The translations under genes were made by a program, and so were the position numbers. Positions 5,355 through 32,902 of a stretch of 32,902 bases of DNA are shown here, piece after piece. The notes under the pieces were generated by a model. The model was not told where the DNA came from, searched no databases, and worked only from the letters and a program-made list of their open reading frames with translations. Position 1 is the first letter of the stretch. Each line of letters starts with the position of its first letter. This DNA comes from a virus (lineage: Duplodnaviria > Caudoviricetes), in IMG/VR virus record IMGVR_UViG_3300032261_000046, positions 1-32,902 of that record; one strand, 5' to 3'.

Positions 5355-5463
5355 AGTGGCTAGGGGCTAGTGGCTAGTGGCTAGTGAAGAGGGGAGCGGA
5401 GGGGCAGAGTTGAGGCGTGTGGCTTTGCATTTACTAGCCACTCGCCACTAGCCACTCGCCACT
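5355..5463. repeat. Inverted pair of AGTGGC(T/G) heptamer arrays
   Basis: AGTGGCT-type array 5355-5386 and reverse-complement array 5433-5463. Confidence 0.9.
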
Positions 5464-6880
5464 ACAGAGTGTTGATGGCTTCGTAACCCATGTCGCCGCC
5501 GTCGCTGGCCAGCGTCTCCGTGGCGGTGGCGATCCGCTCGAGGGCGGCGACGGTCTTCTCGCTGTTGGCGGCGACCTTTTGCATGTCCTTCTCGGAGCCG
5601 ATGCCGTACTTGCTGCGGAGGATGGTCGAGGCCGCTTCCTTGGTGCCGACTCCCATCGCCTCGGCGAACTCCTTCTTGGGGTTCTTGACCTTCTTGTCGG
5701 TGACGTTGACGTGGGAGCCCAGGGCTGCGTTCATGATGCTCTGGCGGTCGCCGGCGATCTTCTGCTTCGCCTTCTCGAAGGCGGCGTTGATCCCTTCCGA
5801 GGACCAGGGCTTGGCCCAGTCCTTCTTGAGGTCGGCGAACTCCTGCTGGGCGGTATTGTGGAGGTCGTCGCCCCAGGTCTCGAGGAAGTCACTCAGCCCC
5901 GTGGACTTGCCGGTCATCTTCTCGACGAAGTAGTCGAGCCGCTGGGCGAGGAAGTTGAGGCCGTCGACGATGTACCCGATCCCTGACGTGACGATCGCGC
6001 GGAACCCGTGAAAGGCAGCGCCCACCACTTGCCAGGTGTCGGCGATGAAGCCGATCGCACGCTGGAGAAAGCCCATTGAGTCCACGGTGCCCTTGATGGA
6101 CTCGAGCGAGGACTGGCCCCACTCCTTGGTGGATCCACTGAGGTCGTCCCACCACTGCTTGGCGGCGACGACGGCGGTGTTTAGCTCGGCGAAGAACGGC
6201 TCGACGACCTCGGGGAGGGTCTGGCCGATCAGGATCTCGATCTGCTCGATGCGGCCGCGCAGCGAGTCCCAGCTCGCGCCTGAGTCCATCGCCCGCTGGT
6301 CCATCGTGGCGATGATGTCGGCACCGCCCGACATGAGGGCGTTGAAGCGCTCCTGAGTGCTCATCGTGGCGGAGACGTTGATGCCGAATTCCTTCACGCC
6401 CTTGGCCTTCCCCATGAGTCCCATCTGGATCCGGCCGAGGGCCTCCTCGAACTTGATCCCCTTGAACTGGGCGATGGCCTGGGTGAGGGTTAGGAGCTGG
6501 GTTGTCATGCCGGCCGCTTCATCCTCGGAGGTCCCCATCGCCTTGAAGATGCCGCCGAGCTTCGTGGCGGCGGAGGTGAAGGTGATCTCGCTGACGCCGA
6601 ACGCGGCGTTCATCTTCTCGGCCTGCTCGACGATGGTGCCGGAGGCGTCCCCAAACATCGTCTGGAGGCGCTCGACGTTGTCGGAGAGGTCGTCGGCGAG
6701 GCCTGCGAAGTGCCCCAGGGCCGCGACGCCGGCGCCGGCGAAGCTGCCCGCGATGAGGGAACCCACGCCGCCGAGGCTCTTGACGAAGCCGCCCACCATG
6801 CCCTGGGCCTGCTGAAAGCCCTTGGCGAGCTTCTCCGTCGCTGCGGTCATCGCGATGTTGATGGTGCCGATGAGGGCCAC
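5462..6880 (-). CDS. Tape measure protein (short, 472 aa)
   Basis: N-terminus MALIGTINIAMTA, Ala/Gly-rich helical, downstream of the tail chaperones. Confidence 0.88.
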   Translation of the reverse strand: MALIGTINIAMTAATEKLAKGFQQAQGMVGGFVKSLGGVGSLIAGSFAGAGVAALGHFAGLADDLSDNVERLQTMFGDASGTIVEQAEKMNAAFGVSEITFTSAATKLGGIFKAMGTSEDEAAGMTTQLLTLTQAIAQFKGIKFEEALGRIQMGLMGKAKGVKEFGINVSATMSTQERFNALMSGGADIIATMDQRAMDSGASWDSLRGRIEQIEILIGQTLPEVVEPFFAELNTAVVAAKQWWDDLSGSTKEWGQSSLESIKGTVDSMGFLQRAIGFIADTWQVVGAAFHGFRAIVTSGIGYIVDGLNFLAQRLDYFVEKMTGKSTGLSDFLETWGDDLHNTAQQEFADLKKDWAKPWSSEGINAAFEKAKQKIAGDRQSIMNAALGSHVNVTDKKVKNPKKEFAEAMGVGTKEAASTILRSKYGIGSEKDMQKVAANSEKTVAALERIATATETLASDGGDMGYEAINTL

Positions 6881-8219: not shown

Positions 8220-8323
8220 CGAGTGGCGAGTGGAAGGAAATGGGATCGCGTGAAAGGTTGCGGCTCGCGACGGGGGACGGTGGCGTTTACTCGCCACTCG
8301 CCACTCGCCACTCGCCACTCGCC
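8220..8323. repeat. Inverted pair of AGTGGCG heptamer arrays
   Basis: CGAGTGG x2 at 8220-8233; ACTCGCC x5 at 8289-8323. Confidence 0.9.
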
Positions 8324-8332
8324 TCTACCCGA

Positions 8333-8788: not shown

Positions 8789-9721
8789 TCAGGGGGCGAG
8801 AGATGCGGGGAGCGTGACTTGGTGGTTGATCTGGTAGCTGAAGCCGACCTCGTAGATCCACTGGTCGGTGCCGGCCCTGGGCTCGTGCGGGGTGTCGATC
8901 TCGTCCTCTTGCAGCGAGGCGGTGACGACGACCGAGCCGATCGTGCCGGCGAAGCCGTCGAACCGGCCGCGGATCGTCTCGCCGACCTGGTCGGCCCCGG
9001 ACTCGGTGAACGACCACGCGGAGAGGCGGACGCGGGCCTGGGAGGTGCCGTCGGAGCCGGCGAGGTTATGGCCGTAGGGGCGTGAGGCCAAAGAGTAGGT
9101 CACGGCCGGGAGCGTCGCCGACTGCGGGAGTGCCCCTTCGTAGATGCGGGTACCGACGAGCGCTGTGAGGGCCGTGGAGTTCGTCAGGCGAGCGTACACG
9201 GCCTGGCGGAGCTGGGCTGCGGTGAGGCCTCCGTCGGCCCCCAGCGATGCGGGGAGCGTGATGCGGTGGTTCACCCGGTAGTCGCACGCGGTCTCGTAAA
9301 TCCACTGGTCGGTGCCGGCCTTGGGCGGGTGCGGGATGTCGAGTTCGTCCTGCTTGATCGAGGCGGTCACCGTCACGCCGTTGATCGTGCCGGTGAAGCC
9401 GTCGAACCGGTCGCGGATCGCCTGCACGAGCTGGTCGGAGCTGGACTCGGCGAACGACCAGGCAGAGACCTGGATCCGCGCGGCGGAAATGCCGTCGGAG
9501 CCGCCCAGGTTATGGCCGTGCGGGCGGGTCACCACCCAGAACGTGAGGGCCGGGAGCTGGGCCGACTGGGGGAGCGCTCCGAAGTAGATCCGGGTTCCCA
9601 CGATGGCGGTGATCGCCGACGAGCCGCTCAGGCGCGCGTAGACGGCCTGGCGGAGGAGCTGGGCGCCGACGGCACCGCCGCCGCCGCCCATGCCGAGGTT
9701 GGAGAGCCACCAGAAGAACAC
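8789..9721 (-). CDS. Tail terminator (gp17/DUF3168-like) with tandemly duplicated domain
   Basis: Two ~140-aa units 444 nt apart, each LRQAVYARL...VGTRIY.GALPQ...R.RFDGF.GTI. Confidence 0.82.
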   Translation of the reverse strand: MFFWWLSNLGMGGGGGAVGAQLLRQAVYARLSGSSAITAIVGTRIYFGALPQSAQLPALTFWVVTRPHGHNLGGSDGISAARIQVSAWSFAESSSDQLVQAIRDRFDGFTGTINGVTVTASIKQDELDIPHPPKAGTDQWIYETACDYRVNHRITLPASLGADGGLTAAQLRQAVYARLTNSTALTALVGTRIYEGALPQSATLPAVTYSLASRPYGHNLAGSDGTSQARVRLSAWSFTESGADQVGETIRGRFDGFAGTIGSVVVTASLQEDEIDTPHEPRAGTDQWIYEVGFSYQINHQVTLPASLAP

Positions 9722-9727
9722 AGGGCG

Positions 9728-11011
9728 TCACACCACGACGTAGGTCAGCTCGCCATCGACGGCGATGGCGGCGGAGAGGTTCAGGTTGAGGGCGTCGCCC
9801 GCCGCCGTCTGGAAGAGGCCCACCGGGCAGTAGGCTCCGCCTCCACTGGCGTAGGTCGTGAGGTAATGGAGGCCGCTGATATCCACGTTGCCGGTGGAGC
9901 TCTGCCACTTCGCGTTGACGAGACCGTTGGCGGAGATGCGGTACCGTAGCACGCGGACCCGCTTCGAGGCGGTCGCCGCGACGATGTTCGCGTTCACGCC
10001 GGAGGCGCTCACCGAGAAGCGGGCGAACTGGGGCGTGAGGGCGGAGGTCCCGTTGTAGACCGTCGAGGTCTCGCCGCAGGCGGAGACCTGGCCGAGGAGG
10101 TTCGTGCCGGCCGGCAGGGCGTTCGTGATCGCGGTGACCGCCGTCACCGTGCCGATGTTCCAGGTCCCGGTCTGACTGGCGAGCACCCGCATGTTCCCGG
10201 CGGTGTCGAGCGAGACCGGCGAAGTCTGGCCGGTGGTGTACGAGGGAGCCGAAGTCGTGACTGCGCCCTGGGCGAGAGGTCCCTTCTGCCCCGAGGTGGC
10301 CGAGGCCTGGTTGACCAGCAAGCCGTTGACGCTGGTGTCGAGCGCCAGTCCGCCCGTCGTGCCCACGTTCGCCGTGACCGTCCAGGTCCCGCCCTGAGTG
10401 GCGAGCGTGCGGATGTTCCCGGCCGTGTCGATCGAGATCGGGGAGGTCTGGCCGGTGGTGTACGTGGGGGCGGCGGTCGTGACTGCGCCCTGGGCGAGGT
10501 GGCCCTTCTGCCCCGAGGTGGTGGATCCCTGGGCGACGACCAGGCCCGAGACTGTCGCGTCCAGCGCCAGACCGCCCGTCGTGCCCACGTTCGCGGTCAC
10601 GGTCCAGGAACCGCCCTGAGTGGCGAGCGTGCGGATGTTCCCGGCCGTGTCGATCGAGATCGGCGACGTCTGGCCGGTGGCGTACGTGGGAGCTGCGGTC
10701 GTGACTGCGCCCTGGGTGAGGATCCCCTTCTCGCCCGAGGTGGCCGAGCCCTGGGCCACGACCAGGCCGGAGACGGTGGCGTCGAGGGCGAGCCCGTTCG
10801 TGGTGCCGACGTTCGCGGTGACGGTCCAGGTGCCCTGCTGGGCGACCGGCAGGCCGAACGAGGCGGTGACCGCCTGGAGCACGTTTGCGCCCGGGCTGAT
10901 GGTGGTCGCGTAGGCGACCACGCAGGCGGGCCACTTGGTGCCGCCAGCCTCCGAAAAGTCTCGGATCGTATCGCCGCCGGATCCGGCGTTCAGAACTGTG
11001 TTGTCAGCCAT
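9728..11011 (-). CDS. Putative fibre/whisker protein with three 74-aa repeats
   Basis: Thr/Gly/Ala-rich, internal tandem repeats, beta-rich C-terminal domain. Confidence 0.75.
   Translation of the reverse strand: MADNTVLNAGSGGDTIRDFSEAGGTKWPACVVAYATTISPGANVLQAVTASFGLPVAQQGTWTVTANVGTTNGLALDATVSGLVVAQGSATSGEKGILTQGAVTTAAPTYATGQTSPISIDTAGNIRTLATQGGSWTVTANVGTTGGLALDATVSGLVVAQGSTTSGQKGHLAQGAVTTAAPTYTTGQTSPISIDTAGNIRTLATQGGTWTVTANVGTTGGLALDTSVNGLLVNQASATSGQKGPLAQGAVTTSAPSYTTGQTSPVSLDTAGNMRVLASQTGTWNIGTVTAVTAITNALPAGTNLLGQVSACGETSTVYNGTSALTPQFARFSVSASGVNANIVAATASKRVRVLRYRISANGLVNAKWQSSTGNVDISGLHYLTTYASGGGAYCPVGLFQTAAGDALNLNLSAAIAVDGELTYVVV
10160..10835. repeat. 222-bp tandem repeat, about 3 copies (bounds approximate)
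   Basis: ATGTTCCCGGC anchor at 10191, 10413, 10635. Confidence 0.9.
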
Positions 11012-14968: not shown

Positions 14969-15316
14969 TCAGGGATGGACGTACTCTTCGCAGATGAACT
15001 CGTACTTGCGATTCCTCTCCTCCACGTTCTGGAATGAGAGGATGTTGATGATTCGCGAGTCCTTGACGAGCTGGAACCGCATGCGGGGATTGGGGAGCGT
15101 TGCGCCCCCCTGCCACCGGCAGGAGACGATGTGGGTGGCGGTCGCCCAGTTCTGTTTGACGTTCAGCAGCTCGGCCCCTCTGAGGAACCTGACCTCGGCC
15201 CAGAAGGTCGCGAGCGCGACCCAGCTCTGGGTGGGCTGGCCATAGGTGTCGAGCGTCTCGACGAGGTCCTGGAGGGCGACCCGCTGGCGGTAGCTGCCGA
15301 CTTGCTGGCTGCGCAT
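14969..15316 (-). CDS. Head closure / head-tail adaptor (SPP1 gp16-like)
   Basis: G..RQRV.LQ.....D.YG.P...W......WAEV..L.G.E. Confidence 0.9.
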   Translation of the reverse strand: MRSQQVGSYRQRVALQDLVETLDTYGQPTQSWVALATFWAEVRFLRGAELLNVKQNWATATHIVSCRWQGGATLPNPRMRFQLVKDSRIINILSFQNVEERNRKYEFICEEYVHP

Positions 15317-15444
15317 CGTTGCGTCGGTTTAGGGGTGTGATAGTCTGGTGGGAGCGATGAGGCCGTGGCCCCATTGAAGGAAGGTCGTAGCAGTCAGCGA
15401 TCAGCATCTTCACCGCGGTCAACTTCCACGGCCCCGTCGCCGCC

Positions 15445-16323
15445 TTACGAATAGGCCCCATGATCGGAGGCCCCGATCAGGGACAGCACCGCGTCGCGCT
15501 GCCGGTCGGAGATGCTCCCCGTCGCTTCGCGGTTTTCATACCAATCGCTCACCAACATCTTCATCGCGGTCTTGATGTTCTCGGGCACGGCCGAGTAATC
15601 GGCCCCGTAGCCGACGGTGAACTGGATGTTGACGGAGTCGAGGGTGGGCTGCGGGATGGGCCACGTCTGGCCGTAGGCGGGCTGGATCCGCGAAGGGCCG
15701 ACCAGGTCGGAGCCGGGCGTGAAGGCGTCGAAAATGTACTTCGTGGGGTCGATCGTCTGGAAGGTGCCCGAGAAGTCCTTGTACTTGACGAAGGTCACGC
15801 CCAGGAGCGGGGCCTCTTGCAGGTTCAGGACGCCGGTGTTGGAGTTCGGGAGCCAGTAGGGGATCGGTCCCATCACCGCCTGGGCACGCATCACGCGGTT
15901 GTAATAGCCCCCCAGCCAGGGCCAGTTGTCGCCCCAGTAGTTCAGGGTCGTGCTGATCAAGCGCTGGCCGGTGATGGTCTCGACCAGGCGGCGGGCGGAG
16001 ATGATCAGCGAGGCGACGAGCGGGTCGTCGTCGGGGTACTCGATGCGGGCGTGGGACTTGGCCTGGGCGAGCGTCAGCGGCTCGTTGGAGACCGAGAGCG
16101 TAACGCCCGTGCCGGTGGAAGTGGCCGGGTTGGTCAGCGTGATCTGGGTCGCACTGTCCACGCTCTTCACCAGTGTGTCGGGAGGAACGTTTGCGCTGGC
16201 CAGCACGAGCGAGCCGACCTGGATCCCGGCCGTGGACGAGACGGAGGCGCACACCGCCGAACCCGATGTGAGGTTCGCGGTCGGGCTGAGTGCGGGGCCG
16301 GAGACGACTTGGATGCGGTACAT
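15445..16323 (-). CDS. Head-tail connector (HK97 gp6-like) with inserted domain
   Basis: EPLTLAQAKSHARI...DD.L...LI.SAR..VE; VPENIKTAMKMLVSDWYENRE. Confidence 0.9.
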   Translation of the reverse strand: MYRIQVVSGPALSPTANLTSGSAVCASVSSTAGIQVGSLVLASANVPPDTLVKSVDSATQITLTNPATSTGTGVTLSVSNEPLTLAQAKSHARIEYPDDDPLVASLIISARRLVETITGQRLISTTLNYWGDNWPWLGGYYNRVMRAQAVMGPIPYWLPNSNTGVLNLQEAPLLGVTFVKYKDFSGTFQTIDPTKYIFDAFTPGSDLVGPSRIQPAYGQTWPIPQPTLDSVNIQFTVGYGADYSAVPENIKTAMKMLVSDWYENREATGSISDRQRDAVLSLIGASDHGAYS

Positions 16324-16354
16324 AGTGGCGAGTGGCGAGTGGCGAGTGGCGAGT
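16324..16354. repeat. AGTGGCG x4 heptamer array abutting the connector start codon
   Basis: CAT (16321-16323) directly followed by AGTGGCG repeats. Confidence 0.92.
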
Positions 16355-16430
16355 CAAAAGCAAGCGAGCGATCAGGGAGCGACCCTGTACGTTCCTGGCA
16401 CTGGTCCGACCGTGCGCTGGAGACAATCGC

Positions 16431-16673
16431 TCACTTGCGAGTCACTGCGCGCTCCGACTTGGCGGGCTTGGGATCCGACGCCACCTCGAGGACGAGCTCG
16501 GAGCGGGGGCGGGGGGACGGGATCGGCGTGAGGTCCTCGCCGTCGGCCAGGCTGGCGTGCCCGGCCTTGAGGTAGGCCTTCGCCTTGAGGTCCGGCAGAT
16601 CGACCACGTCTCCCTTGCGGAAGACGTGGGTGCCGATCAGGTGATTGTCGAGGTTGAGACGGACGCGGGGCAT
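16431..16673 (-). CDS. Small head-associated hypothetical protein
   Basis: GDVVDLP...A..Y...G.A motif, common in small genes after capsid genes. Confidence 0.7.
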   Translation of the reverse strand: MPRVRLNLDNHLIGTHVFRKGDVVDLPDLKAKAYLKAGHASLADGEDLTPIPSPRPRSELVLEVASDPKPAKSERAVTRK

Positions 16674-16674
16674 G

Positions 16675-17136
16675 TCAGCCTTTCAGGAACAGACCCAGGC
16701 CGACGTCGGCGATCTCGCCGGCGAAGGCTTCGAGGTCGAGGATCGCGGACTCAACGGACTCTTGGAGATCGCACAGCTCGGCGGCGGTCGTGCTGTCGCC
16801 GCTTGATTCGGCGGTGACATACGCCGCCTGGTACGCCGCCAGGAGCGTGGTGAAGAGGTCCTGCGCCGTTTGCAGGATCGCCTCGGGCGGTTGCTTCGGA
16901 TCCACGACCCAGCCCATGAGCTGGATGACGAACGATCCGCCGAGCTCGAAGGTGCGATCCGTCAGGTAGCGACGCCGGTCGCGTGACTTCTTGACCTGCT
17001 TGTCGAACCACTTCGTCAGGCCCTTGTACTTGCGGGCCTGGAAGACGTGTTCAAATGCGTGGGAAACCTCGAAGACGGTGATCTCGCATTGAGCCACGGC
17101 GTTCAGGGAGTCGATGACTGAGGGATCGCCTTGCAT
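16675..17136 (-). CDS. Bacterioferritin-fold protein with degenerate ferroxidase centre
   Basis: Near-ungapped manual alignment to E. coli Bfr (M.GD..VI..LN.....E18; R61...L.G; GD; I..LE; GL...L). Confidence 0.8.
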   Translation of the reverse strand: MQGDPSVIDSLNAVAQCEITVFEVSHAFEHVFQARKYKGLTKWFDKQVKKSRDRRRYLTDRTFELGGSFVIQLMGWVVDPKQPPEAILQTAQDLFTTLLAAYQAAYVTAESSGDSTTAAELCDLQESVESAILDLEAFAGEIADVGLGLFLKG

Positions 17137-17149
17137 GGGGGCCTCTTGG

Positions 17150-17221
17150 AATACGGGAGGGGATGGCGGGAGAGCAACATAGCGCCTAGGAGCCGGGCCT
17201 CCAGGCCATCCCTCCCGTATT
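17150..17221 (-). promoter_or_regulatory. Long stem-loop between capsid and ferritin-like genes
   Basis: 17150-17167 pairs with 17205-17221 (17 bp, one bulge); no U-tract. Confidence 0.65.
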
Positions 17222-17226
17222 GGCTC

Positions 17227-18585
17227 TTACTGGGTGATCAGGTCGTTGTTGATGCAGAACGACGCGGCGTGCCGGACCTCGAAGTCGAGGTCCTGGAGAA
17301 CGACGATCCGGATGGTGCCGGCGGGGCCTCCAGTGTATGGATCCACCAAAACGTCCATGCCCGACCAGAAGGCGAGGATCGCCTCGGACCAGTTGGCGAG
17401 GATCATCGACGAGAGGCTCGTGCCGGTGCCCTTCGTGAGGTTCGATGGCATGAGGTTCGTCGCGTAGGCGGGGTAACCGTTGACGGTGTTGTCGTCGCCC
17501 CAGAGCGCGACCGGGAAGTACGAGGTCTGCCCGGACATCTGCTTCGGGGTCAGCTTGAGGGTCGCCCGCGCTTGCGGGGTCATCACCATCCCGATGTTGG
17601 CGTTCAGCGGCACGTTGGCCTTGGCGAGGGCCTCTTCCATCTGGCAGATCAACGTCCAGGTGGGGGCGTCGCCGTTGGTGCCCGAGCCGATGTTGCCGAC
17701 GCCGGCCGTGCCGAGGATGCCCTGGGGCTGCGGGGAGCCGGTGCCTGCGTAGACGGCGGTCTCGATGCCGCGCGCCAGGATCGCCGCGAGGTCCTCGCGG
17801 ACGAACTGCTCGGCGTCGATCGAGAGCTGCTCCAGGAACCGACGGCTCATGTCGGTGAACGCGCCGGCCGTCTTGGGAGTGAACAGGACCTGGTCGATCG
17901 TCTGGGCCGTCGTCGAGACTGCGGCGGACTCAGCGACCCAGCTCAGGGTGCCGATGCCCGACTGCCTGGGCAACGCGAAGTTGCCATGCATGTCGGTCAG
18001 GACCTTGGGGCCGAGCTGGTTGAGGACCATGAGCGCCCGGAGGTACTCGATCCAGGTGGTGTCCCACCGGGTGAGGACCGCGCCGGTGCCGGCCGTGGTG
18101 TCGTCGATACGATGCTCGACCTGCTTCGCGTGGATGCCCCGGACCCGATCGCCATTGGCGAGGCGGGTGGGATCCTCGTTGAAGGACATCGGCATTCGCT
18201 GCGGCACGAAGAACCCCTGGGGATTCTTGCCGACGCGCTTGGCGATCTCCTGCGAGGTCTCGCCCTCGAGGCCGTCGAGCTTCTCGCGGCCAGCCACCTT
18301 GAGGATGGCCCGGCTCACGCTGTACTTGTGCTTGCCGTTCGCCACCTCGTGGGGGAGGGGTTCGGAGATGCGGCGGTAGTCAGCCTCGGTGGCGCGCTCG
18401 CCGGCCTCGAACCGCTCGATCGAGCTGATCGACTTCGACAGCTCGGTGGTGCGGCTGAAGATTTCGTCGGAGCGCTTCTGCTCCTCGGCCGTGAATGGGC
18501 GCTTCTCTTTGCCGACTTTCTCCGCCAGCTCACGCTGTTCGTCGATGAGCTTGGCGTGCTCTGCTCTAAGTTCGCAGGCTTTCAT
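17227..18585 (-). CDS. Major capsid protein, HK97 fold, with N-terminal coiled-coil scaffold segment
   Basis: WVAE, PK..GA....SR..L, G.G...P.GI, NGYP...TN..P, VDPYT, D..VRH..SF; follows the protease. Confidence 0.95.
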   Translation of the reverse strand: MKACELRAEHAKLIDEQRELAEKVGKEKRPFTAEEQKRSDEIFSRTTELSKSISSIERFEAGERATEADYRRISEPLPHEVANGKHKYSVSRAILKVAGREKLDGLEGETSQEIAKRVGKNPQGFFVPQRMPMSFNEDPTRLANGDRVRGIHAKQVEHRIDDTTAGTGAVLTRWDTTWIEYLRALMVLNQLGPKVLTDMHGNFALPRQSGIGTLSWVAESAAVSTTAQTIDQVLFTPKTAGAFTDMSRRFLEQLSIDAEQFVREDLAAILARGIETAVYAGTGSPQPQGILGTAGVGNIGSGTNGDAPTWTLICQMEEALAKANVPLNANIGMVMTPQARATLKLTPKQMSGQTSYFPVALWGDDNTVNGYPAYATNLMPSNLTKGTGTSLSSMILANWSEAILAFWSGMDVLVDPYTGGPAGTIRIVVLQDLDFEVRHAASFCINNDLITQ

Positions 18586-18624
18586 GGGGACCTTTCGGAA
18601 GTGATGGGTCAGGTGGGCCTGGAG

Positions 18625-19332
18625 TCAGGGCAAGACAGACGCCTGCTCTACTCGCAGTCGGAAGTGAAGATGTGAGACGGGATCGAACTGATGGACGGGA
18701 TCGGGAGCTGGGGCCGGAGCTGCGGCGCTCCGGGCCTGGTCGAGGCTGCGGAGCGCGGCGGAGGTGTCGGTGTACGCCGGGAACACCACCGGGCCTACGT
18801 CGTACAGGTCGCGGACCTTGAGGAGCGTGCGGATCGGGACCGCGCCCGAGTTATCCCAGGAGTCGGCGTCGGCGACGAACGAGAACGACATGCCGTCCAT
18901 GTCGCCACGGCGGATGTCCTCGGCGGTGTCGCGGCCGACCTGGGTGTCGGGCAGGTCGATCTCGACGCGGAGCCCCAGGAGATCCGTGCTCATCCGGAGC
19001 GTGCCCGACTTGGACCGACCGATCAGCTTGTTGGCGTCGTGGTTCACGAGCGCCCGCACGTCCTGGGAGAGGACGGCGTTGAAGGCGTCGGGGGCGATCT
19101 GCTCGTAGAAGCCGCCCAAGTCCTGCGAAAACTTGCCGAAGACGGCCGCGTACCCGACGACGGTTCCCGGTCCCTTGCCGCCCTTCGCGGCGCGGAGCTG
19201 GAGGCCAGCCATCAGGCAGCGACGCTCTTCGTTCTCGGAGGTCGCCCGGACCGTGGGTGCGGGAGCTGGTACCGGCGAGGGCGCGCGCTTGGGGGCCGCC
19301 CTGCCGAACGTGCGGGAGGGGACGAGAGGCAT
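18625..19332 (-). CDS. Prohead maturation protease (HK97 gp4 family)
   Basis: GYAAVF, E.IAP.AF, L.NHD, GMSFSF, DVGPV.FPAY.DT. Confidence 0.95.
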   Translation of the reverse strand: MPLVPSRTFGRAAPKRAPSPVPAPAPTVRATSENEERRCLMAGLQLRAAKGGKGPGTVVGYAAVFGKFSQDLGGFYEQIAPDAFNAVLSQDVRALVNHDANKLIGRSKSGTLRMSTDLLGLRVEIDLPDTQVGRDTAEDIRRGDMDGMSFSFVADADSWDNSGAVPIRTLLKVRDLYDVGPVVFPAYTDTSAALRSLDQARSAAAPAPAPDPVHQFDPVSHLHFRLRVEQASVLP

Positions 19333-19359
19333 TTCAGAACCGCTTTCGCTGGACGTGGA

Positions 19360-20742
19360 TTAGGGAGATGAAGGCTCGGATGTGGGCTGGGACTCTTTGA
19401 GCTTGGGAGGTGCTTTACCGGAGGCGGAGAGGGGCAGGTAATCTTTCTTTTGCCGCTCAGGCGAGGCGTCAGTGTCCGGAGCTGGCGGCGATCGCGGTGA
19501 CGGAGGTGGGTCGGTGGGATCCTGGCCAGCTTTTTTAAGCGAGGTGTATTGCGACTGGACGAGATAGAGGTCGCCGCCCTTATCGGTGCCGAGGGGGTTC
19601 ATCCCTTCGCTCACGCGGATGTCATCGGCGCTCATCGCGCCCATGTTCCTCATCACCTGGTAGTAGGAAGTGCGGGCGGCGGTGTTCGCTCGGTTGAGGC
19701 GGGCGAAGCTGTGATGCCAGAAGATGCCCTTGTCGCGCTCGGACTGGAAGAGGAGCTTCTCGTCGGACTCGCTCTCCCAGGCCAGGGACCAGCCCAGGAG
19801 CGTGGTATCGGTGTAGTCCCGATTGGACTCCTCGACGTTCGCCAGATGGCTCTGCGAGTAGTCGCCGATCTTGTGCGGAGGCAACCGGAAGATCGCCGCC
19901 ATCTCCACCCGCTGGAAGGACCGGGTCGCGAGGAACTGGGCGTCGTCCAAGGGCATGGTGGTCGCGTTCCAGTCCATGCCCTCCTCGAGGATCATCAGGT
20001 GGTGGGCGCTCTTGGCTCCCTGATGCACCTGGTAGATCGATTCGCGGAGGTTCTGGCGGGCGGTGGGCGAGAGCTTGCGAGGGGTCTTCAGGACCCCGCC
20101 CGGCTGGGCGTGGTTCCCGAAGAAGGACGCGCCGAACTCGGTCGCCGCCATGCCCAGGCCCACGTCCTGGCGGGCCATGTGGATCACGCTGTAGCCGACC
20201 AGGCCGTCGAAGCCCAGGCCTGCGATATGCAGCATGTTCTCCGGCAGGATCCGCTTCTGGGTGTCCGAGAGCAGGTAGTAGAGCCGGCCGGTCCAGTCGT
20301 CGCGCCTGGGCTGCACCAGGGCGGGGTTGAGCGGGTACAGACTGATGGGCTGGCCACGGCCATTGCGGACGATCTCGGCGTAGCCGTTACCCCAGAGCAA
20401 GACATGGCCCATGAGGGCCTGGCGGAAGCGGAAGGCGTTCTGCTCTTCGTTGGGAGCCTCGTTCAAGAGGCGGTTGGCGCAGACGTCGAGCGCAGGCTGG
20501 CGGGACTCGAGGCCGGTGCGGCGGAAGGTCGAGTAAGGCAGCGAGGCGATGTCGGTGGCGATCACGTTCACCGCGGCGAAGACCGAGGTGAAGTTGAGCG
20601 CCGTCTGAGGCGTGACCAGCGTCCCGCTGAGGACGGGGCTACTGACCAGGAAGCCGGCGTTGGTGACCGCCTGGCCCTGGCGCGCACGCTGGGCGGTGCC
20701 CCTGGGAAATCGTTTCGAGAGGGTCGTGTCGAACCGCTTCAT
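19360..20742 (-). CDS. Portal protein (HK97 family)
   Basis: LLWGNGYA, GFDGL.G.S, F.N.A.PGG.L, ILEEGM, DAQFL..R. Confidence 0.96.
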   Translation of the reverse strand: MKRFDTTLSKRFPRGTAQRARQGQAVTNAGFLVSSPVLSGTLVTPQTALNFTSVFAAVNVIATDIASLPYSTFRRTGLESRQPALDVCANRLLNEAPNEEQNAFRFRQALMGHVLLWGNGYAEIVRNGRGQPISLYPLNPALVQPRRDDWTGRLYYLLSDTQKRILPENMLHIAGLGFDGLVGYSVIHMARQDVGLGMAATEFGASFFGNHAQPGGVLKTPRKLSPTARQNLRESIYQVHQGAKSAHHLMILEEGMDWNATTMPLDDAQFLATRSFQRVEMAAIFRLPPHKIGDYSQSHLANVEESNRDYTDTTLLGWSLAWESESDEKLLFQSERDKGIFWHHSFARLNRANTAARTSYYQVMRNMGAMSADDIRVSEGMNPLGTDKGGDLYLVQSQYTSLKKAGQDPTDPPPSPRSPPAPDTDASPERQKKDYLPLSASGKAPPKLKESQPTSEPSSP

Positions 20743-20929: not shown

Positions 20930-22528
20930 TTACAGGAACAGAAGGCCGCGTTCTTCGTAGACCGAGGTCTCGGTGATTTCAGAGGTGGCTGCGGCGATGG
21001 CGTTGACGAGCGCGGCCATGCCGTCGATCTTCTTGGAGGACTTCTTCTTCGATAGCTTCAGGTTGCCGGCCGCGTCCTGCTCGGCCACCGAGTTGGAGGC
21101 ATGCCAGCGGAGGATCGGGTGACCGCCATGCCGCAACTTGCCGCAGAGGATCAGCCGCAACAGCTCCTTCGTCGGAGCGGAGAGAGACAGGAAGCCTTGC
21201 CGCAAGAACTCTACCGGGAGGCCATCCTGCTCTTTGAGTTCAAGCGCCAGCTTCGCTGCGTTATAGGGGTCACAGAAGACCTTGCGGCAGTCGTGCTGCG
21301 ACGCCTGTATCACGACCTCTCGACGGACGAACGAATAATCAACCACGTTCCCTGGAGTGAGTTCGATGAACTCACCGTCTGCCCAGGTGCGGTAGGGGAC
21401 CTGGTGACGCTTCTCAAGGTCGGCGATGTTTTCCTCCGGGAGCCAGAACCGGGGCACTACATCGAAGCCGCTCTCGGGATCCCCGCTGATCGTGACCGCG
21501 GCGGTGAGGTCGTCGATCGATGAGAGGTCGAGGCCGATCCAGATCGGGTCGCCTTTCACCAGGGTCGCGTGGGCGTTGCAGGCGTCCCACTGGCCGATGG
21601 CGATGAACGCCTGGTCGCCGCGGATGACGATGTTGAGTCGCAACCGCAGAAAGTTCGCCCAGTCGGTGGGCGTGTTCTTCGCCTTCTGTAAATCCTTGCG
21701 GAAGTCGTCCTCGTTGAGCGTGACACCGAGGGAGGGGTTAGCCTTTCGCCAGGTGTCGGGTGATTCGAGCTCGTCGTCAGGCAGGGCCCGGTAGACCACG
21801 CCGAGGTGGCTGACGTCCGGGATGACGCCGGCGTTGACCTTCTCGCTGTACTCCCTTTGCTCGAACCAGGGGCCGCTCTCTTCCTCGCCGGCCGTCGTGA
21901 TCACGATCCGCAGCGGCTGCTCTCGACTCGCGCCGGCGTACTCGAAGACCTCCCAGAGGTCTCTGCTCTTGAACCGGTGCAGCTCGTCGAAGATGGAGGC
22001 GGAAGCGTTGACGCCGTCCTTGCTGGGGGCGTCGGCCGAGTTCTTCTGGATCTTGCCGTAGCCGATGGGGTCGATGATCCGACCCTTGCTGCGCGTCACC
22101 TCGAGCCGGCTCTTCAGCTCGGGGGACTTGTCGACCATCCTCGCCGCTTCCTCGAAGACCAGGTCGGCCTGGGCCCGATCAACGGCGTTGAGGTAGACCT
22201 CGGGAGCGCCCTCGCCGTCGGCGAGCAGGAAGAAGAGGCAGAGCGCTGAGACCAGCGTGCTCTTGCCGTTCTTTTTGGCGACCTCGAGGTAGGTGGTCTT
22301 GAACCGGCGCTTGCCGTCCCTGGTACGCCAGCCGAAGAGGCGCATGAGGTAGTCGCGCTGCCAGTCGAGGAGCTTCAGAGGCTGCCCGGCCCAGCGGCCC
22401 TTGCTCTGACAGCAGAACGCCTCGATGAAGTCGCAGACAAGCGAGCCGTATTCCTCGTCGAAGTAGCAGCCCTGCGATAGGGCGAGCTGGTCCGACTGAT
22501 TCCGGATCCAGAGCGAATCGACGGACAT
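20930..22528 (-). CDS. terL: Terminase large subunit
   Basis: L..WQ, KKNGKST Walker A, IFDELH Walker B, ITTAG, GLDLS..DLTA, KIDG..A. Confidence 0.97.
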   Translation of the reverse strand: MSVDSLWIRNQSDQLALSQGCYFDEEYGSLVCDFIEAFCCQSKGRWAGQPLKLLDWQRDYLMRLFGWRTRDGKRRFKTTYLEVAKKNGKSTLVSALCLFFLLADGEGAPEVYLNAVDRAQADLVFEEAARMVDKSPELKSRLEVTRSKGRIIDPIGYGKIQKNSADAPSKDGVNASASIFDELHRFKSRDLWEVFEYAGASREQPLRIVITTAGEEESGPWFEQREYSEKVNAGVIPDVSHLGVVYRALPDDELESPDTWRKANPSLGVTLNEDDFRKDLQKAKNTPTDWANFLRLRLNIVIRGDQAFIAIGQWDACNAHATLVKGDPIWIGLDLSSIDDLTAAVTISGDPESGFDVVPRFWLPEENIADLEKRHQVPYRTWADGEFIELTPGNVVDYSFVRREVVIQASQHDCRKVFCDPYNAAKLALELKEQDGLPVEFLRQGFLSLSAPTKELLRLILCGKLRHGGHPILRWHASNSVAEQDAAGNLKLSKKKSSKKIDGMAALVNAIAAATSEITETSVYEERGLLFL

Positions 22529-22529
22529 G

Positions 22530-23636
22530 TCAGGTGGTGATCATGTCCAGGGCGGTGACGAACGACGCCGTGCGGCGGAACTGGACGTCGGCCTCCTGGT
22601 AGGCGGAGACCTGGTAGTAGCCACTGGTGGCGAGCGTGTACGGGTTGACGAGGAGATCGACGGCGGAGAACAGGTTCACGAACAGGTCGTCCCAGTTGCC
22701 GAAGATCAGCGCCGATAACGTGGCTCCCGAGGTCCCCTTCACCAGATTGTTGGGGACGTTGGTCGTGGCCATCGCCGGATATCCAAGGACCGTGTTGCGG
22801 TCCTTGTCCCAGAGGAACCGGCCTGCGTTGCCGCTGGAGGCATCGACGCGGCGGAGCTTGCTCCGGCCGTTCGGCGTGGTCACCCAGCCCAGGCGTGCCT
22901 CGGCCGGTGCATCTCCGTTGGCATTGGTCAGGACCGCTTCCATGCCGACCAGGTCGGCGTAGGCTGGTGCCCCGCCGTTGGCCGCGTCGGCGGCGAGCGT
23001 GTATCCGGTGAGCGTGGCCGGTGTGCTGGGGATGATCCCCGTGGGGGCGTTGCCGGATCCGTTCAGAGCGGCTGCGTCGATCGCCACGGCGATCGATTTG
23101 GCGAGGTCGTCGTAGACCCACTGGTCGAACCCAGGCGCGCCCAGCTCCTTCATGACCCGGCTGATGCCAGTGTTCGCGAGGCAGGTGTGGGGCACGAACA
23201 CGATGGAGGTGGTCGTCAGGTTCGTGAACGATCCATAGTTCGCGTTCTCAGCGACCCACGCGACGGGCGTCGCTCCGGTCTGAACCGGTATCTGGAGCTT
23301 GCCGCGCTGGGTAGTGAGGCTGGTGATCCGGCCCCCCATCGCCGCGACCACGAGCTTGGCCCGCAGCACGTCGACGAAGCCGTCCGGCCAGGCGATCGGT
23401 AGGCCAGTGACTGACGCGGTCGTGTCGGCCCGCTGCTCGATCACGGGAGCATCGTGCGGCAGGAAGAACCCTTGCGGCGACCGCCCCGAGCGGTGCGCGA
23501 TCTCGGCGGAGACCTCCCCCTCGAGGCCGGTGGGCTTGCGGTCCTGAGATTCGAGCGCCGAGCGGATGGCCCGGATCAGGCTGTAGCGCGCCTTCCCCTT
23601 GTGATGCGGGAGATCGGCGAAGATGTCTTTATCCAT
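22530..23636 (-). CDS. Second HK97-fold capsid protein (paralogue lacking the N-terminal coiled coil)
   Basis: Aligns with 17227-18585 along its length: YS..RAI, GLEGE.S.EIA.R.G..PQGFF.P, WVAE, GYPA.AT..P.NL.KGT, V.PYT. Confidence 0.9.
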   Translation of the reverse strand: MDKDIFADLPHHKGKARYSLIRAIRSALESQDRKPTGLEGEVSAEIAHRSGRSPQGFFLPHDAPVIEQRADTTASVTGLPIAWPDGFVDVLRAKLVVAAMGGRITSLTTQRGKLQIPVQTGATPVAWVAENANYGSFTNLTTTSIVFVPHTCLANTGISRVMKELGAPGFDQWVYDDLAKSIAVAIDAAALNGSGNAPTGIIPSTPATLTGYTLAADAANGGAPAYADLVGMEAVLTNANGDAPAEARLGWVTTPNGRSKLRRVDASSGNAGRFLWDKDRNTVLGYPAMATTNVPNNLVKGTSGATLSALIFGNWDDLFVNLFSAVDLLVNPYTLATSGYYQVSAYQEADVQFRRTASFVTALDMITT

Positions 23637-26690: not shown

Positions 26691-27482
26691 CTAAGCCGTT
26701 TGCTTCTCGGGACTACGATCGTCTGGCATGGCGAACAGGTCTGAGCTGCGAGGGGACGACAGTATTTGTCGCAGCCGGCGGAGGGCCCGGTCCTGGACCT
26801 GGTAAAGCCACCAGGCTGAGAGGCCAGTCTCGTGAGCAATGTCCCGCATGGACATGGGATCACAGCCCAGGCCAAAGCGGCGGGCCAGGACCACCCGCTC
26901 GAGCTGGAGGAGCGAGCCGAAGGCCACTGCGAGTGCGTCGAGGTCCTCGCTCAGGACGGCGAGCTCGTGCGGATCCGCCTGCCTGGGATCGGTCGGCAGG
27001 GTCACGCGACCGGCCTCGAGCTGGTCGATCTCGTCGTCGTCACTCGCGGTGAGGGCGAAGTACTTGATCGGCCGGCGAGCTCGGCGTCGGTGCTCCAGAC
27101 ACTCCGCCCGGGTCTTTGCCTGGGCCTCCGTGACTGCCTTGGCGAGTGCCTCCTCGCGCTCGAGGTAGACGGGCGTATGAATGGCGGGACGCTCTCGCAG
27201 CCAGGCGTGAATCTCCATGAGGATCCAGTGCCGGGCGTACGTGGTGAACCTGGTGCCGGCCTCGTCGTCGAAGCGGTCGGCGGCTTCTACGAGGCCGGTG
27301 ACGGCGGCCTGGAGAATGTCCTGGAAGTCGCCATCCCGTGACCAGGGCTTGGCGAGGCCGATCGCGTAGCCGTAGTTATGCTCGACCAGCGCGTCTCGTG
27401 CCTTCTGGTCGCCCTGCTTCACCCGTTGGGCCAGGGCGACTTCCTCCTCGGCGCTGAGGAGGGGGAGCTGCTTGTACCGCAT
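26691..27482 (-). CDS. Sigma-70 family RNA polymerase sigma factor (RpoD/RpoH-like regions 1.2, 2, 4)
   Basis: PLLS.EEE..LA, AR..LV..N, D..Q....GL.EA..RFD...G.RF.TYA..WI, ER.VL..RFGL, AL.RLR. Confidence 0.93.
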   Translation of the reverse strand: MRYKQLPLLSAEEEVALAQRVKQGDQKARDALVEHNYGYAIGLAKPWSRDGDFQDILQAAVTGLVEAADRFDDEAGTRFTTYARHWILMEIHAWLRERPAIHTPVYLEREEALAKAVTEAQAKTRAECLEHRRRARRPIKYFALTASDDDEIDQLEAGRVTLPTDPRQADPHELAVLSEDLDALAVAFGSLLQLERVVLARRFGLGCDPMSMRDIAHETGLSAWWLYQVQDRALRRLRQILSSPRSSDLFAMPDDRSPEKQTA

Positions 27483-27721
27483 CGTATCTCCGGCTGCGTC
27501 GCCTCGTGTCCCTTATTCGAACATAGCTCTTGCCCGCCCTAACGGCAGGTGGAGGGTCGTGTCACGGGGGTTCGGCGGCGGTGAATCAGGGCGAGCGAGG
27601 TTTGACCTAGTGTTCAGACTGGGGGCTCATGGCTTCGCCAGGCTGCGGGGCCGGCCTCGAGGCGCAGGCTCAAAACGGAGGGAAACGCCCCCCGAGGCGT
27701 GCCGAATTCGGCCTTTCACAG

Positions 27722-27749
27722 GCTGAACATTTTGGTTGGAATGTTCAGC
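27722..27749. promoter_or_regulatory. 10-8-10 palindrome GCTGAACATT-N8-AATGTTCAGC (recombination core or operator)
   Basis: Perfect arms 27722-27731/27740-27749; another perfect arm at 27817-27826. Confidence 0.6.
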
Positions 27750-27841
27750 GTGCCGGGAATTCAGGGGCTCAAAATGCAGGCTTTGTGCGTCCTGAGCGCG
27801 AAACAGACCGCATCGTAATGTTCAGCATGGGAGTTGGAGCA

Positions 27842-28459
27842 ATGCCTGGAAGTAGGTCCCAGAATGACGAGCTGCGAGGTCGGAAGTACCTCGAAAAAGA
27901 TGAGGTCATGAGGATCGTCAGAGCCGCTGCGAAGCTGGGTCGCCAACTGCGGAAGCTGAAGCCCGGCGAGAAACGGGGAAGGTGCACCAACGGACAGCGC
28001 GACTCGGCGATGATCCTGATCGCCTATCGCCACGCCTTCCGCGTGAGCGAGCTGGTGAACCTGAGATGGGAGCAAATCAACCTGGAGAGGCGGAGCATGT
28101 TCGTCAAGCGCCTGAAGGGCAGTAGCTCGCAGATGCATACGATGCAAAAGGACGAGGTCGCGGTCCTGCGCGCCCTGGGAGGCGATAGGACCGGACTCGT
28201 CTTCCGCAGCGAGCTGGGGGGGCGGATGGCCCGCAACCGGTTCAACCAGATCCTCGCCCGCGCCGCGCAGGCCGCGGGGCTGAAATTCCCGGTCAACCCG
28301 CACATGCTCCGGCACGGCTGCGGGTTCGAGCTGACGAACCGGGGGATCCCGATGCGCTATATACAGGACTGGATGGGCCACGCCAACTTGCAGCACACCG
28401 CCGGTTATGCCGCCCTTTGCGACCAGCGCTTCAGGGCCGTCGCGATGTGGGATGACTAG
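27842..28459 (+). CDS. FimB/FimE-like tyrosine recombinase (catalytic domain only, 205 aa)
   Basis: RKYL...EV, RD..MIL.AYRH..R.SEL, KRLKG, PHMLRH.CGF.L, IQD..GH.N..HT..Y. Confidence 0.92.
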   Translation: MPGSRSQNDELRGRKYLEKDEVMRIVRAAAKLGRQLRKLKPGEKRGRCTNGQRDSAMILIAYRHAFRVSELVNLRWEQINLERRSMFVKRLKGSSSQMHTMQKDEVAVLRALGGDRTGLVFRSELGGRMARNRFNQILARAAQAAGLKFPVNPHMLRHGCGFELTNRGIPMRYIQDWMGHANLQHTAGYAALCDQRFRAVAMWDD

Positions 28460-32855: not shown

Positions 32856-32902
32856 GCGGAGAGAAATATGTCCTCTCCAAGAGGCTCTTCGGACAAGAAC
32901 TT
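32719..32902 (+). repeat. Terminal direct repeat, right copy
   Basis: Matches 1-173 with the TCGACACATAA insertion and one SNP. Confidence 0.97.

Follow-up and report, generated by a model that had tools for sequence, protein, structure and literature searches.

A phage clade of bacterioferritin-fold proteins that has lost the central di-iron site and carries a new conserved motif, predicted at the subunit interface

The 153-residue protein P0001, encoded by an uncultured tailed phage, is a member of the ferritin superfamily that is derived from bacterioferritin (Bfr) and lacks features that define Bfr, Dps and encapsulin cargo. Its central di-iron site is almost certainly dead. A phage clade of Bfr-fold proteins like this one, with the central site removed and a new interface motif (HxxEH on helix A together with D45 on helix B), is apparently undescribed; the titles and abstract openings of the papers surveyed gave no description of a ligand-less Bfr clade in phage head modules. 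Judging from the sequences, P0001 is tentatively explained as a head-associated late protein whose relocated metal site would hold stray metal off the packaged DNA, a reading to which we give somewhat less than an even chance.

The window, which is the whole stretch of DNA analysed here, is an entire IMG/VR virus record of 32,902 bases, estimated by CheckV as 87% complete. The ends of the record overlap inside the primase gene (positions 1-173 against 32718-32901, 93.5% over 184 columns), so the genome is probably close to whole, and the record was probably assembled as a circle and left with a ragged end. Window DNA was found in 24 runs, all of them soil metagenomes from 2018-2019, which may belong to one campaign; four of the runs are possible sources of the record. 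The minus strand carries genes for an HNH protein, the small terminase, a second capsid-like protein, the large terminase, the portal, an S78 protease and an HK97-type capsid; after the capsid gene follow P0001, an 80-aa ORF, and genes for the adaptor, head closure, tail completion, tail tube and tape-measure-like proteins. The phage further encodes a D5-type primase, a sigma factor and two tyrosine recombinases. The window was regarded as a tailed phage, probably temperate, and not as an encapsulin operon. The features around P0001 are as follows.

15445..16323, minus strand: head-tail adaptor (PF05135, phrog_442)
16431..16673, minus strand: 80-aa ORF of no known family, also present in relatives without the Bfr-like gene
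16675..17136, minus strand: bacterioferritin-fold gene P0001, 153 aa plus stop, without the central di-iron site and the haem Met
17150..17223 (approximate), minus strand: possible long hairpin between the capsid stop and P0001 (-43.3 kcal/mol, z -2.4)
17227..18585, minus strand: HK97-type major capsid protein (PF05065, E 4e-37; phrog_617), immediately upstream of P0001
18625..19332, minus strand: prohead protease S78 (Pfam)
19360..20742, minus strand: portal protein (Pfam)
20930..22528, minus strand: terminase large subunit (Pfam)

P0001 starts 90 nt downstream of the capsid stop (17227), as its description in the earlier note as lying directly after the major capsid gene implies. Only 1 nt separates its stop from the next start codon (16673), which suggests co-transcription with the late genes; no promoter or terminator match was found within 15300-19500. 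For the hairpin, 6 of 200 shuffles were equally stable, and the related locus L014 has merely a short spacer at this place. Each of the six close relatives whose DNA covers this place has the 80-aa ORF (35-46% identity), located behind the Bfr-like gene or, failing that, behind the capsid gene.

Several other features of the window were also recorded. The second HK97-fold capsid-like gene (22530-23636, minus strand; 368 aa) is 35% identical to the main capsid, is without the first ~70 residues of the latter, and sits between the genes of the two terminase subunits. L010, L013, L014 and L015 share it at 54-66% (in L014 it has moved between terminase and portal), and it could encode a second shell size or a minor capsid subunit. 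The tail-completion gene (8789-9721, minus strand) contains two tandem gp17-type domains, and near it a 450-nt internal repeat (84% identical, 10159-10830) is found in the next gene. The tape-measure-like gene (5462-6880, minus strand; phrog_31409, E 9e-5) encodes only 472 aa, which implies a very short tail. A sigma-70-type factor (26691-27482, minus strand) adjoins the second tyrosine recombinase at 27629-28459. An AGTGGCG repeat at 16324-16355, with similar letters near 8280-8330, draws contigs from many other organisms; in three of four runs its depth is 111-137 against ~7 elsewhere, as would be expected of a dispersed repeat that is widespread.

The ferritin fold that had been proposed for P0001 was borne out by both profile search and structure prediction. 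Pfam Ferritin (PF00210) matched at E 8e-9, with 36 bits against a cut-off of 24.5. The AlphaFold2 model (pLDDT 96.6) contains helices at residues 5-34, 38-64, 84-111, 115-145 and 147-152; by DSSP it is all-helical, with the short helix E (147-152) present and the BC helix absent, a combination described as a bacterioferritin feature (PMC3179174). The best Foldseek matches of the model were bacterioferritin and FtnA chains, with TM 0.94-0.95. The alignment to Bfr was said to be almost free of gaps, and hhalign against Rhizobium Bfr (L027) indeed gave a single 1-residue gap at 98.5% probability. The best PDB match of the clade profile was 9iig_A (E 1.5e-21), the aligned sequence of which has K at position 52 and the ferroxidase residues present. 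The TIGR00754 equivalog did not match P0001, and seven of eight homologues scored 16-37 bits against its cut-off of 125.55. P0001 has a net charge of -8 and no N- or C-terminal extension.

Homologues were collected in two steps. A word-based search returned 13 proteins, comprising one 99% copy and 12 proteins at 48-62% identity; these first-found homologues are without the same ligands, and their alignment revealed other invariant polar residues. A HMMER scan with that alignment gave 218 matches, 150 of which were listed and analysed. P0014, the 99% copy, five fragments and a repeat protein of no relation were left out, and 155 sequences were kept, namely 62 without the canonical centre and 93 others. 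These 155 sequences, three locus proteins and Rhizobium Bfr were used for IQ-TREE, which recovered, among the matches listed and the added loci, a clade of 60 (SH-aLRT 99.9) with a median pairwise identity of 26%; 94 sequences lie outside for comparison. A sister group of five (P0036, P0063, P0109, P0127 and P0140) has lost the ferroxidase centre and kept the E18-R54 pair, and is without the HxxEH motif, having its own aromatic-rich helix A; a search for the genomic context of these five gave none. Many long-branched Bfr-like proteins outside the clade (for example P0062, P0070, P0116 and P0121) have all six ligands intact and an Arg at the haem position, and may be the source pool of the clade. 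Several clade members carry the source label 'bacterioferritin (cytochrome b1)' despite having neither the centre nor the haem ligand.

The di-iron ligands of Bfr are given as E18, E51, H54, E94, E127 and H130 (PMC12120770), and two features of the gene bear on them.

17083..17085, minus strand: E18, the sole canonical ligand retained, probably ion-paired with R54
16969..16983, minus strand: RDRRR, codons 52-56, in which R52 replaces the haem Met and R54 replaces His54

P0001 has E, S, R, F, V and A at positions 18/51/54/95/128/131, where Rhizobium Bfr has E, E, H, E, E and H, and it has R at the haem-ligand position 52, where Rhizobium Bfr has M. The claims that only E18 is left and that the haem Met has become Arg were thus exact. 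The loss is clade-wide: E51 is found in 0/60 clade members against 81/94 sequences outside, H54 in 0/60 against 82/94, E94 in 2/60 against 88/94, E127 in 0/60 against 63/94, H130 in 0/60 against 75/94, Y25 in 1/60 against 85/94, and the haem M52 in 0/60 against 36/94. R or H at position 52 also occurs in 33/94 sequences outside, and R52 by itself is not new. E18 is the exception, being present in 40/60 clade members (86/94 outside). It is always paired with R/K54 (43/43), and both are absent in the other 19 of 19 sequences, where position 54 is non-basic and mostly Trp or Leu; each of the two states requires four parsimony changes on the tree. Since E18 occurs only beside R/K54, an ion pair and not an iron ligand is indicated, and we infer that E18 was kept as half of a buried pair with R54.

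The basic patch noted on this helix is present, but conservation is confined to R52, R54, R55 and R56, while K46, K49 and K50 vary. A DNA-binding role of the patch found no support: its lysines are variable, those arginines that are conserved fall in the core of the bundle or at the two-fold interface, and the overall charge is negative.

It could be supposed that P0001 is a captured host bfr gene decaying neutrally, with five ligands lost and the gene itself lost from some relatives. Pairwise dN/dS for P0001 was 0.23-0.54 (six pairs, with dS near saturation), compared with 0.16-0.53 for the capsid and 0.20-0.49 for the adaptor. The GC3 of the Bfr-like gene tracks each genome, and no variant letters were seen over P0001 in the runs that cover the gene, three out of four. 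Neutral decay is contradicted by these dN/dS values and the lack of variant letters, by the full length kept across the clade and by the shared new motif, and its probability is negligible. P0001 is, with near certainty, a selected protein. Ligand loss across the clade and dN/dS below 1 in the six pairs are the pattern which the earlier note had proposed to look for.

The new motif involves the following codons.

17047..17061, minus strand: H-A-F-E-H (HxxEH), codons 26-30, helix A, the core of the motif
17002..17004, minus strand: D45, helix B, candidate third metal ligand by conservation and helical wheel, aligned with a Dps ferroxidase Asp

H26 is found in 55/60 clade members against 1/94 sequences outside, E29 in 55/60 against 3/94, H30 in 49/60 against 7/94, D45 in 50/60 against 7/94, E23 in 42/60 against 10/94, R/H52 in 53/60 against 33/94, R/K55 in 50/60 against 2/94 and R/H56 in 56/60 against 19/94, where the clade counts are somewhat inflated because the collecting profile already contained the motif and the patterns that led to L008, L039, L080 and L165 required portions of it. 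Even so, 93 sequences without the motif were collected with this profile. The full HxxEH is present on the helix in 48/60 clade members, and it arises by chance in 0.075% of 20000 shuffles of P0001. No columns of the clade are better kept than those of H26 and E29, which rank above the structural D114. Positions 52 and 56 are paired as RR in 27/51 and as HH in 9/51 sequences, with four parsimony changes between Arg and His at 52 and five at 56, and position 60 is D, N or E in only 41/60. E29 occurs together with R56 in 28/51 and E23 with R52 in 18/51.

In solved Bfr/FtnA dimers, residues 22, 23, 26, 30, 33, 52, 56 and 60 form two-fold contacts (PMC12120770); N23 and R30 are located at the two-fold, and the iron site of Dps is at the two-fold interface (PMC3179174). 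Helical-wheel arithmetic places 23/26/30 and 45/52/56 on the flanks of the dimer interface. The HxxEH/D45 motif would thus face the two-fold interface and overlap the place of the Dps ferroxidase site. In two alignments, Rhizobium Dps has acidic residues opposite D45, R56 and D60, while the conserved His of its helix A stands opposite E29 in one and opposite H26 in the other. The intersubunit ferroxidase ligands of Dps (His, His, Asp, Asp, Glu) fall on E29 (or H26), T41, D45, R56 and D60 of P0001. The clade profile also matches Listeria Dps structures, with a +2 offset at the match start, and hhalign of the clade profile against Rhizobium Dps gave no significant match.

Two fixed His, several acids and an exchange between Arg and His are most simply explained by a metal site, and we think it somewhat more likely than not that the motif binds a metal. 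In P0001 itself, Arg at 52 and 56 and Thr at the position of the second Dps His (41) mean that the cluster could be a pure salt-bridge network. Calling the protein catalytically dead is right for the central site alone. Alternative ligands, which the earlier note regarded as evidence against its reading if they gave normal ferroxidase activity, are in part there as candidates: the His/Glu/Asp cluster comprises the most conserved columns of the family.

The same cluster could also serve a new enzyme on a ferritin scaffold, in which HxxEH and D45 bind one Zn, Mn or Fe ion, E29 acts as general base and the arginines hold an anionic substrate. Such a protein might be a packaged metallo-hydrolase or nucleotide trap, at work while the head matures or once the DNA has been injected. 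The inverted motif of zinc metallopeptidases is HxxEH, which is complete in most of the clade. A ~160-residue domain of cyanophycin synthetase has it as a cryptic active site with conserved Arg and His around it (PMC9262961), and effectors whose genes lie among the head genes are presumed to be packaged (PMC9503650). Against this stand the all-helical fold, with no inverzincin beta-sheet, the location of the site, which would be partly buried at the dimer interface, the prohead protease that the window already encodes, the lack of a PADLOC match for P0001, and the absence of any substrate clue. We consider both the enzyme and its proposed role quite unlikely.

The genomic context of the Bfr-like gene was compared across phages. 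It was found in the head module in 8/8 distinct records read as DNA, across three head types, the head module being 26% of the window genome. The order capsid, Bfr-like gene, 80-aa ORF and adaptor occurs in the window, L005/L010 (record 100% complete), L014 and L007. L008 has the order terminase, portal, Bfr-like gene, with another portal family. The order portal, Bfr-like gene, scaffold and phrog_283 capsid is found directly in L165, with a methyltransferase inserted in L039 and with other inserts in L080 (record 90% complete); inserted genes come and go around the Bfr-like gene in L039 and L080, and the Bfr-like gene stays. These phrog_283 capsids (L039 5160-6518, L080 1051-2424, L165 6530-7888) contain inserted repeats matching tail-fibre families. 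Read-through N-termini were seen in P0014, which has a capsid end (73% over 74 aa), and in P0015, which has a portal end (63% over 27 aa); the fused ends probably come from frameshifted assemblies and would imply placements after capsid and portal. A search for longer, fused forms of the Bfr-like protein gave none, which is a weak point against head loading. The capsid synteny which the earlier note proposed to check holds for the head module and not for the capsid as such: the gene follows the portal in other phages. The ten contexts amount to about four independent placements, covering 7/60 tree members (none for the other 53), and together with the bias of virus collections towards head genes this makes the head link good and not overwhelming. 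The capsids and portals encoded beside it come from families that are not related to each other, and the proteins showed no conserved tail for docking.

The gene is absent at this site in three of six phages with a capsid at least 60% identical (L012, L013 and L015, at 60-63%), whose records are 13-34% complete and contain no match to the gene. Because L015 groups as the sister of L014 (UFBoot 94), these absences require no fewer than two losses, or else repeated gains, and they indicate that the gene is accessory and not essential. The gene was also absent at eight more distant capsid loci.

Such a patchy head-module gene could encode a metal-free minor head protein, in which the His/Glu/Asp/Arg residues are a self-specific salt-bridge network replacing haem and the inert dimer or cage is a small structural helper of the MuF/gp7 kind. 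The E18-R54 pair shows that vacated metal sites are filled by ion pairs in this clade, the pairings of E29 with R56 and of E23 with R52 fit such a network, and salt bridges at these positions occur in haem-free Bfr dimers (PMC12120770); moreover, in L008 and L165 the gene comes right behind the portal, where muf genes are located (PMC5576092). Yet His retained in 55/60 (H26) and 49/60 (H30) members at so low an identity, and the repeated Arg-to-His changes at 52 and 56, exceed what salt bridges need, and P0001 has no MuF domain, no basic tail and a negative net charge. This explanation is rather unlikely.

Two features at the ends of the bundle concern assembly.

16729..16956, minus strand: span with R61, E129 and E136 (R61/E128/E135 of Bfr), cage-assembly salt-bridge residues, all kept
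16681..16698, minus strand: helix E, residues 147-152, of Bfr type, not an encapsulin targeting peptide

The equivalents of R61, E128 and E135 hold the Bfr 24-mer together (PMC3179174); in the clade R61 is present in 47/60 members, E129 (E or D) in 46/60 and E136 in 48/60. The inner iron site of Bfr, H46/D50, is gone (K46 and K50 in P0001), and the Bfr pore residues D34, E66, D132, N148 and Q151 are replaced by A34, G66, L133, L149 and K152. In the clade D34 is found in 0/60, D132 in 2/60, N148 in 5/60 and Q151 in 5/60. Over twelve chosen inner-face positions, the mean charge shifts from -1.8 to +1.0. With the pore residues lost and the inner face changed in charge, a cage, if formed, would not be an ordinary iron store.

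These residues also bear on the proposal that P0001 is a cytoplasmic, unpackaged late protein, the homodimers of which join host Bfr/FtnA cages as dead, haem-less, pore-altered subunits and so lower iron storage or release. The assembly residues, helix E and a Bfr-like N-terminus are kept while pore residues are lost, the gene is accessory, and it has been reported that foreign Bfr subunits co-assemble in vivo and that natural hetero-cages are made from homodimers (PMC12120770). The proposal leaves unexplained why conservation is highest in the new motif. Genes for host take-over usually belong to the early set, whereas all 10 contexts are in the head module, and the clade is more divergent than one would probably expect if it tracked a host interface. 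We hold it to be unlikely.

The C-terminus, DVGLGLFLKG, had been compared with encapsulin targeting peptides and with helix E of Bfr, and only the second likeness stood. The targeting-peptide consensus of Family 1 encapsulin cargo is SDGSLGIGSLKRS (PMC8346489), and by a simple pattern over the last 30 residues a motif of this kind was present in 0/60 clade members; G146 is found in 50/60 of them and in 85/94 other Bfr-like proteins. Encapsulin-type cargo, carried by such a peptide into the capsid or into a shell of the second capsid-like gene, would fit the adjoining HK97-fold gene, the shorter second one at 22530-23636 and the existence of Bfr cargos of encapsulins (PMC8346489). Yet the C-terminal tail forms helix E, and the shell gene is that of a true phage capsid, in the company of terminase, portal, protease and tail genes. 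L013 and L015, which are without the Bfr-like gene, have the second capsid-like gene as well. The cargo part of the earlier proposal is accordingly very improbable. Its more general part, that the four-helix bundle has been repurposed, is supported, as are the ferritin fold, the loss of the canonical centre and haem ligand, purifying selection and the conserved link to head genes.

In the preferred reading, that of a head-associated protein with a relocated metal site, the vacated centre would be filled by the E18-R54 ion pair or by hydrophobic residues, and the HxxEH/D45 cluster would likely form a metal site at the two-fold subunit interface. In the P0001 branch Arg52 and Arg56 would stand where other branches have His, with the cluster still binding metal. 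Homodimers and probably a Bfr-type cage would form, because R61/E129/E136 and helix E are kept. The operon position points to late expression together with the head proteins; it is evidence on timing and not on packaging. The protein would then be loaded into the head, where it would keep the packaged DNA clear of stray metal, probably Fe2+, and protect against Fenton damage. We give an even chance to the presence of P0001 in virions. Ferritin-fold domains occur within prohead-protease-labelled proteins of uncultured phages (BFVD A0A6J7XDU5, TM 0.79; A0A6J7WIS1; A0A6J7WPK9), which gives independent support for head loading of the ferritin superfamily, and it has been proposed that procapsids might carry cargo-like proteins (bioRxiv 10.1101/2025.06.18.659913). 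It is possible, though doubtful, that phages acquired a haem-free Bfr, stripped out its di-iron centre and evolved a new active site at the dimer interface (HxxEH, D45 and Arg/His at 52 and 56), carried in virions of unrelated head types; with the same doubt, such a site may be an iron site between subunits of the Dps kind, invented independently for a second time on a 24-mer, or the first metallo-hydrolase of its sort among ferritins. The remaining probability is for roles beyond the readings given here.

Phage ferritin-family genes are usually classed as oxidative-stress helpers on the Pfam label alone. If HxxEH/D45 binds metal, the active site would have moved from the bundle core to the subunit interface, with the Arg/His variants as intermediates, and this move is the difference that separates Bfr from Dps. 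The 17-kDa protein would then also serve to test whether a metal-handling protein is loaded into tailed-phage heads.

Compared with known systems, P0001 is closest in build to Bfr, including E. coli Bfr (1bcf), with which it shares the bundle with helix E, the missing BC helix (TM 0.94), the length, the N-terminus and R61/E128/E135. It differs in being phage encoded, in its new HxxEH/D45 motif and in the absence of E51, H54, E94, E127, H130, Y25, H46/D50 and the B-pore and four-fold-pore residues. It resembles the haem-free Bfr branch (Shewanella hetero-Bfr 9iig_A and P. aeruginosa FtnA 3r2h) in having no haem Met, whereas the natural hetero-cage subunits described keep either haem or the ferroxidase centre (PMC12120770) and P0001 has neither. 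Like Dps, it has no central di-iron site and has conserved His and acidic residues at the predicted two-fold interface, D45 and D60 being in the Dps ligand register. Unlike Dps, it has Bfr ancestry, helix E, no BC helix and no basic terminal tail, with Glu at the first His, Thr at the second, Arg or His at an Asp, and two extra His. Dps also occurs in phages (PMC8008677, PMC6669764) and, as Dps-like domains in BFVD, in head modules, and phage Dps and ferritin genes have already been published (PMC8008677, PMC6669764, PMC6802176). Encapsulin cargo (Flp/EncFtn, IMEF and Bfr cargo; PMC8346489) shares a ferritin-superfamily gene adjoining an HK97-fold shell gene, but here the shell is a DNA-packaging phage capsid, the targeting peptide is missing and the canonical di-iron ligands are gone. 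MuF and SPP1 gp7 (PMC5576092) are similar as patchy packaging-module genes right after the portal, as in part of this family, whereas P0001 is acidic, follows the capsid gene in this phage group and has no MuF domain by Pfam or PHROG. The inverzincin HxxEH metallopeptidases (M16; the CphA1 N domain, PMC9262961) likewise have a helical HxxEH, nearby Arg and His and a downstream acid; P0001 has an unrelated all-helical ferritin fold with no adjacent beta-sheet or backing helix, and this likeness, an analogy, is a lead and not a test.
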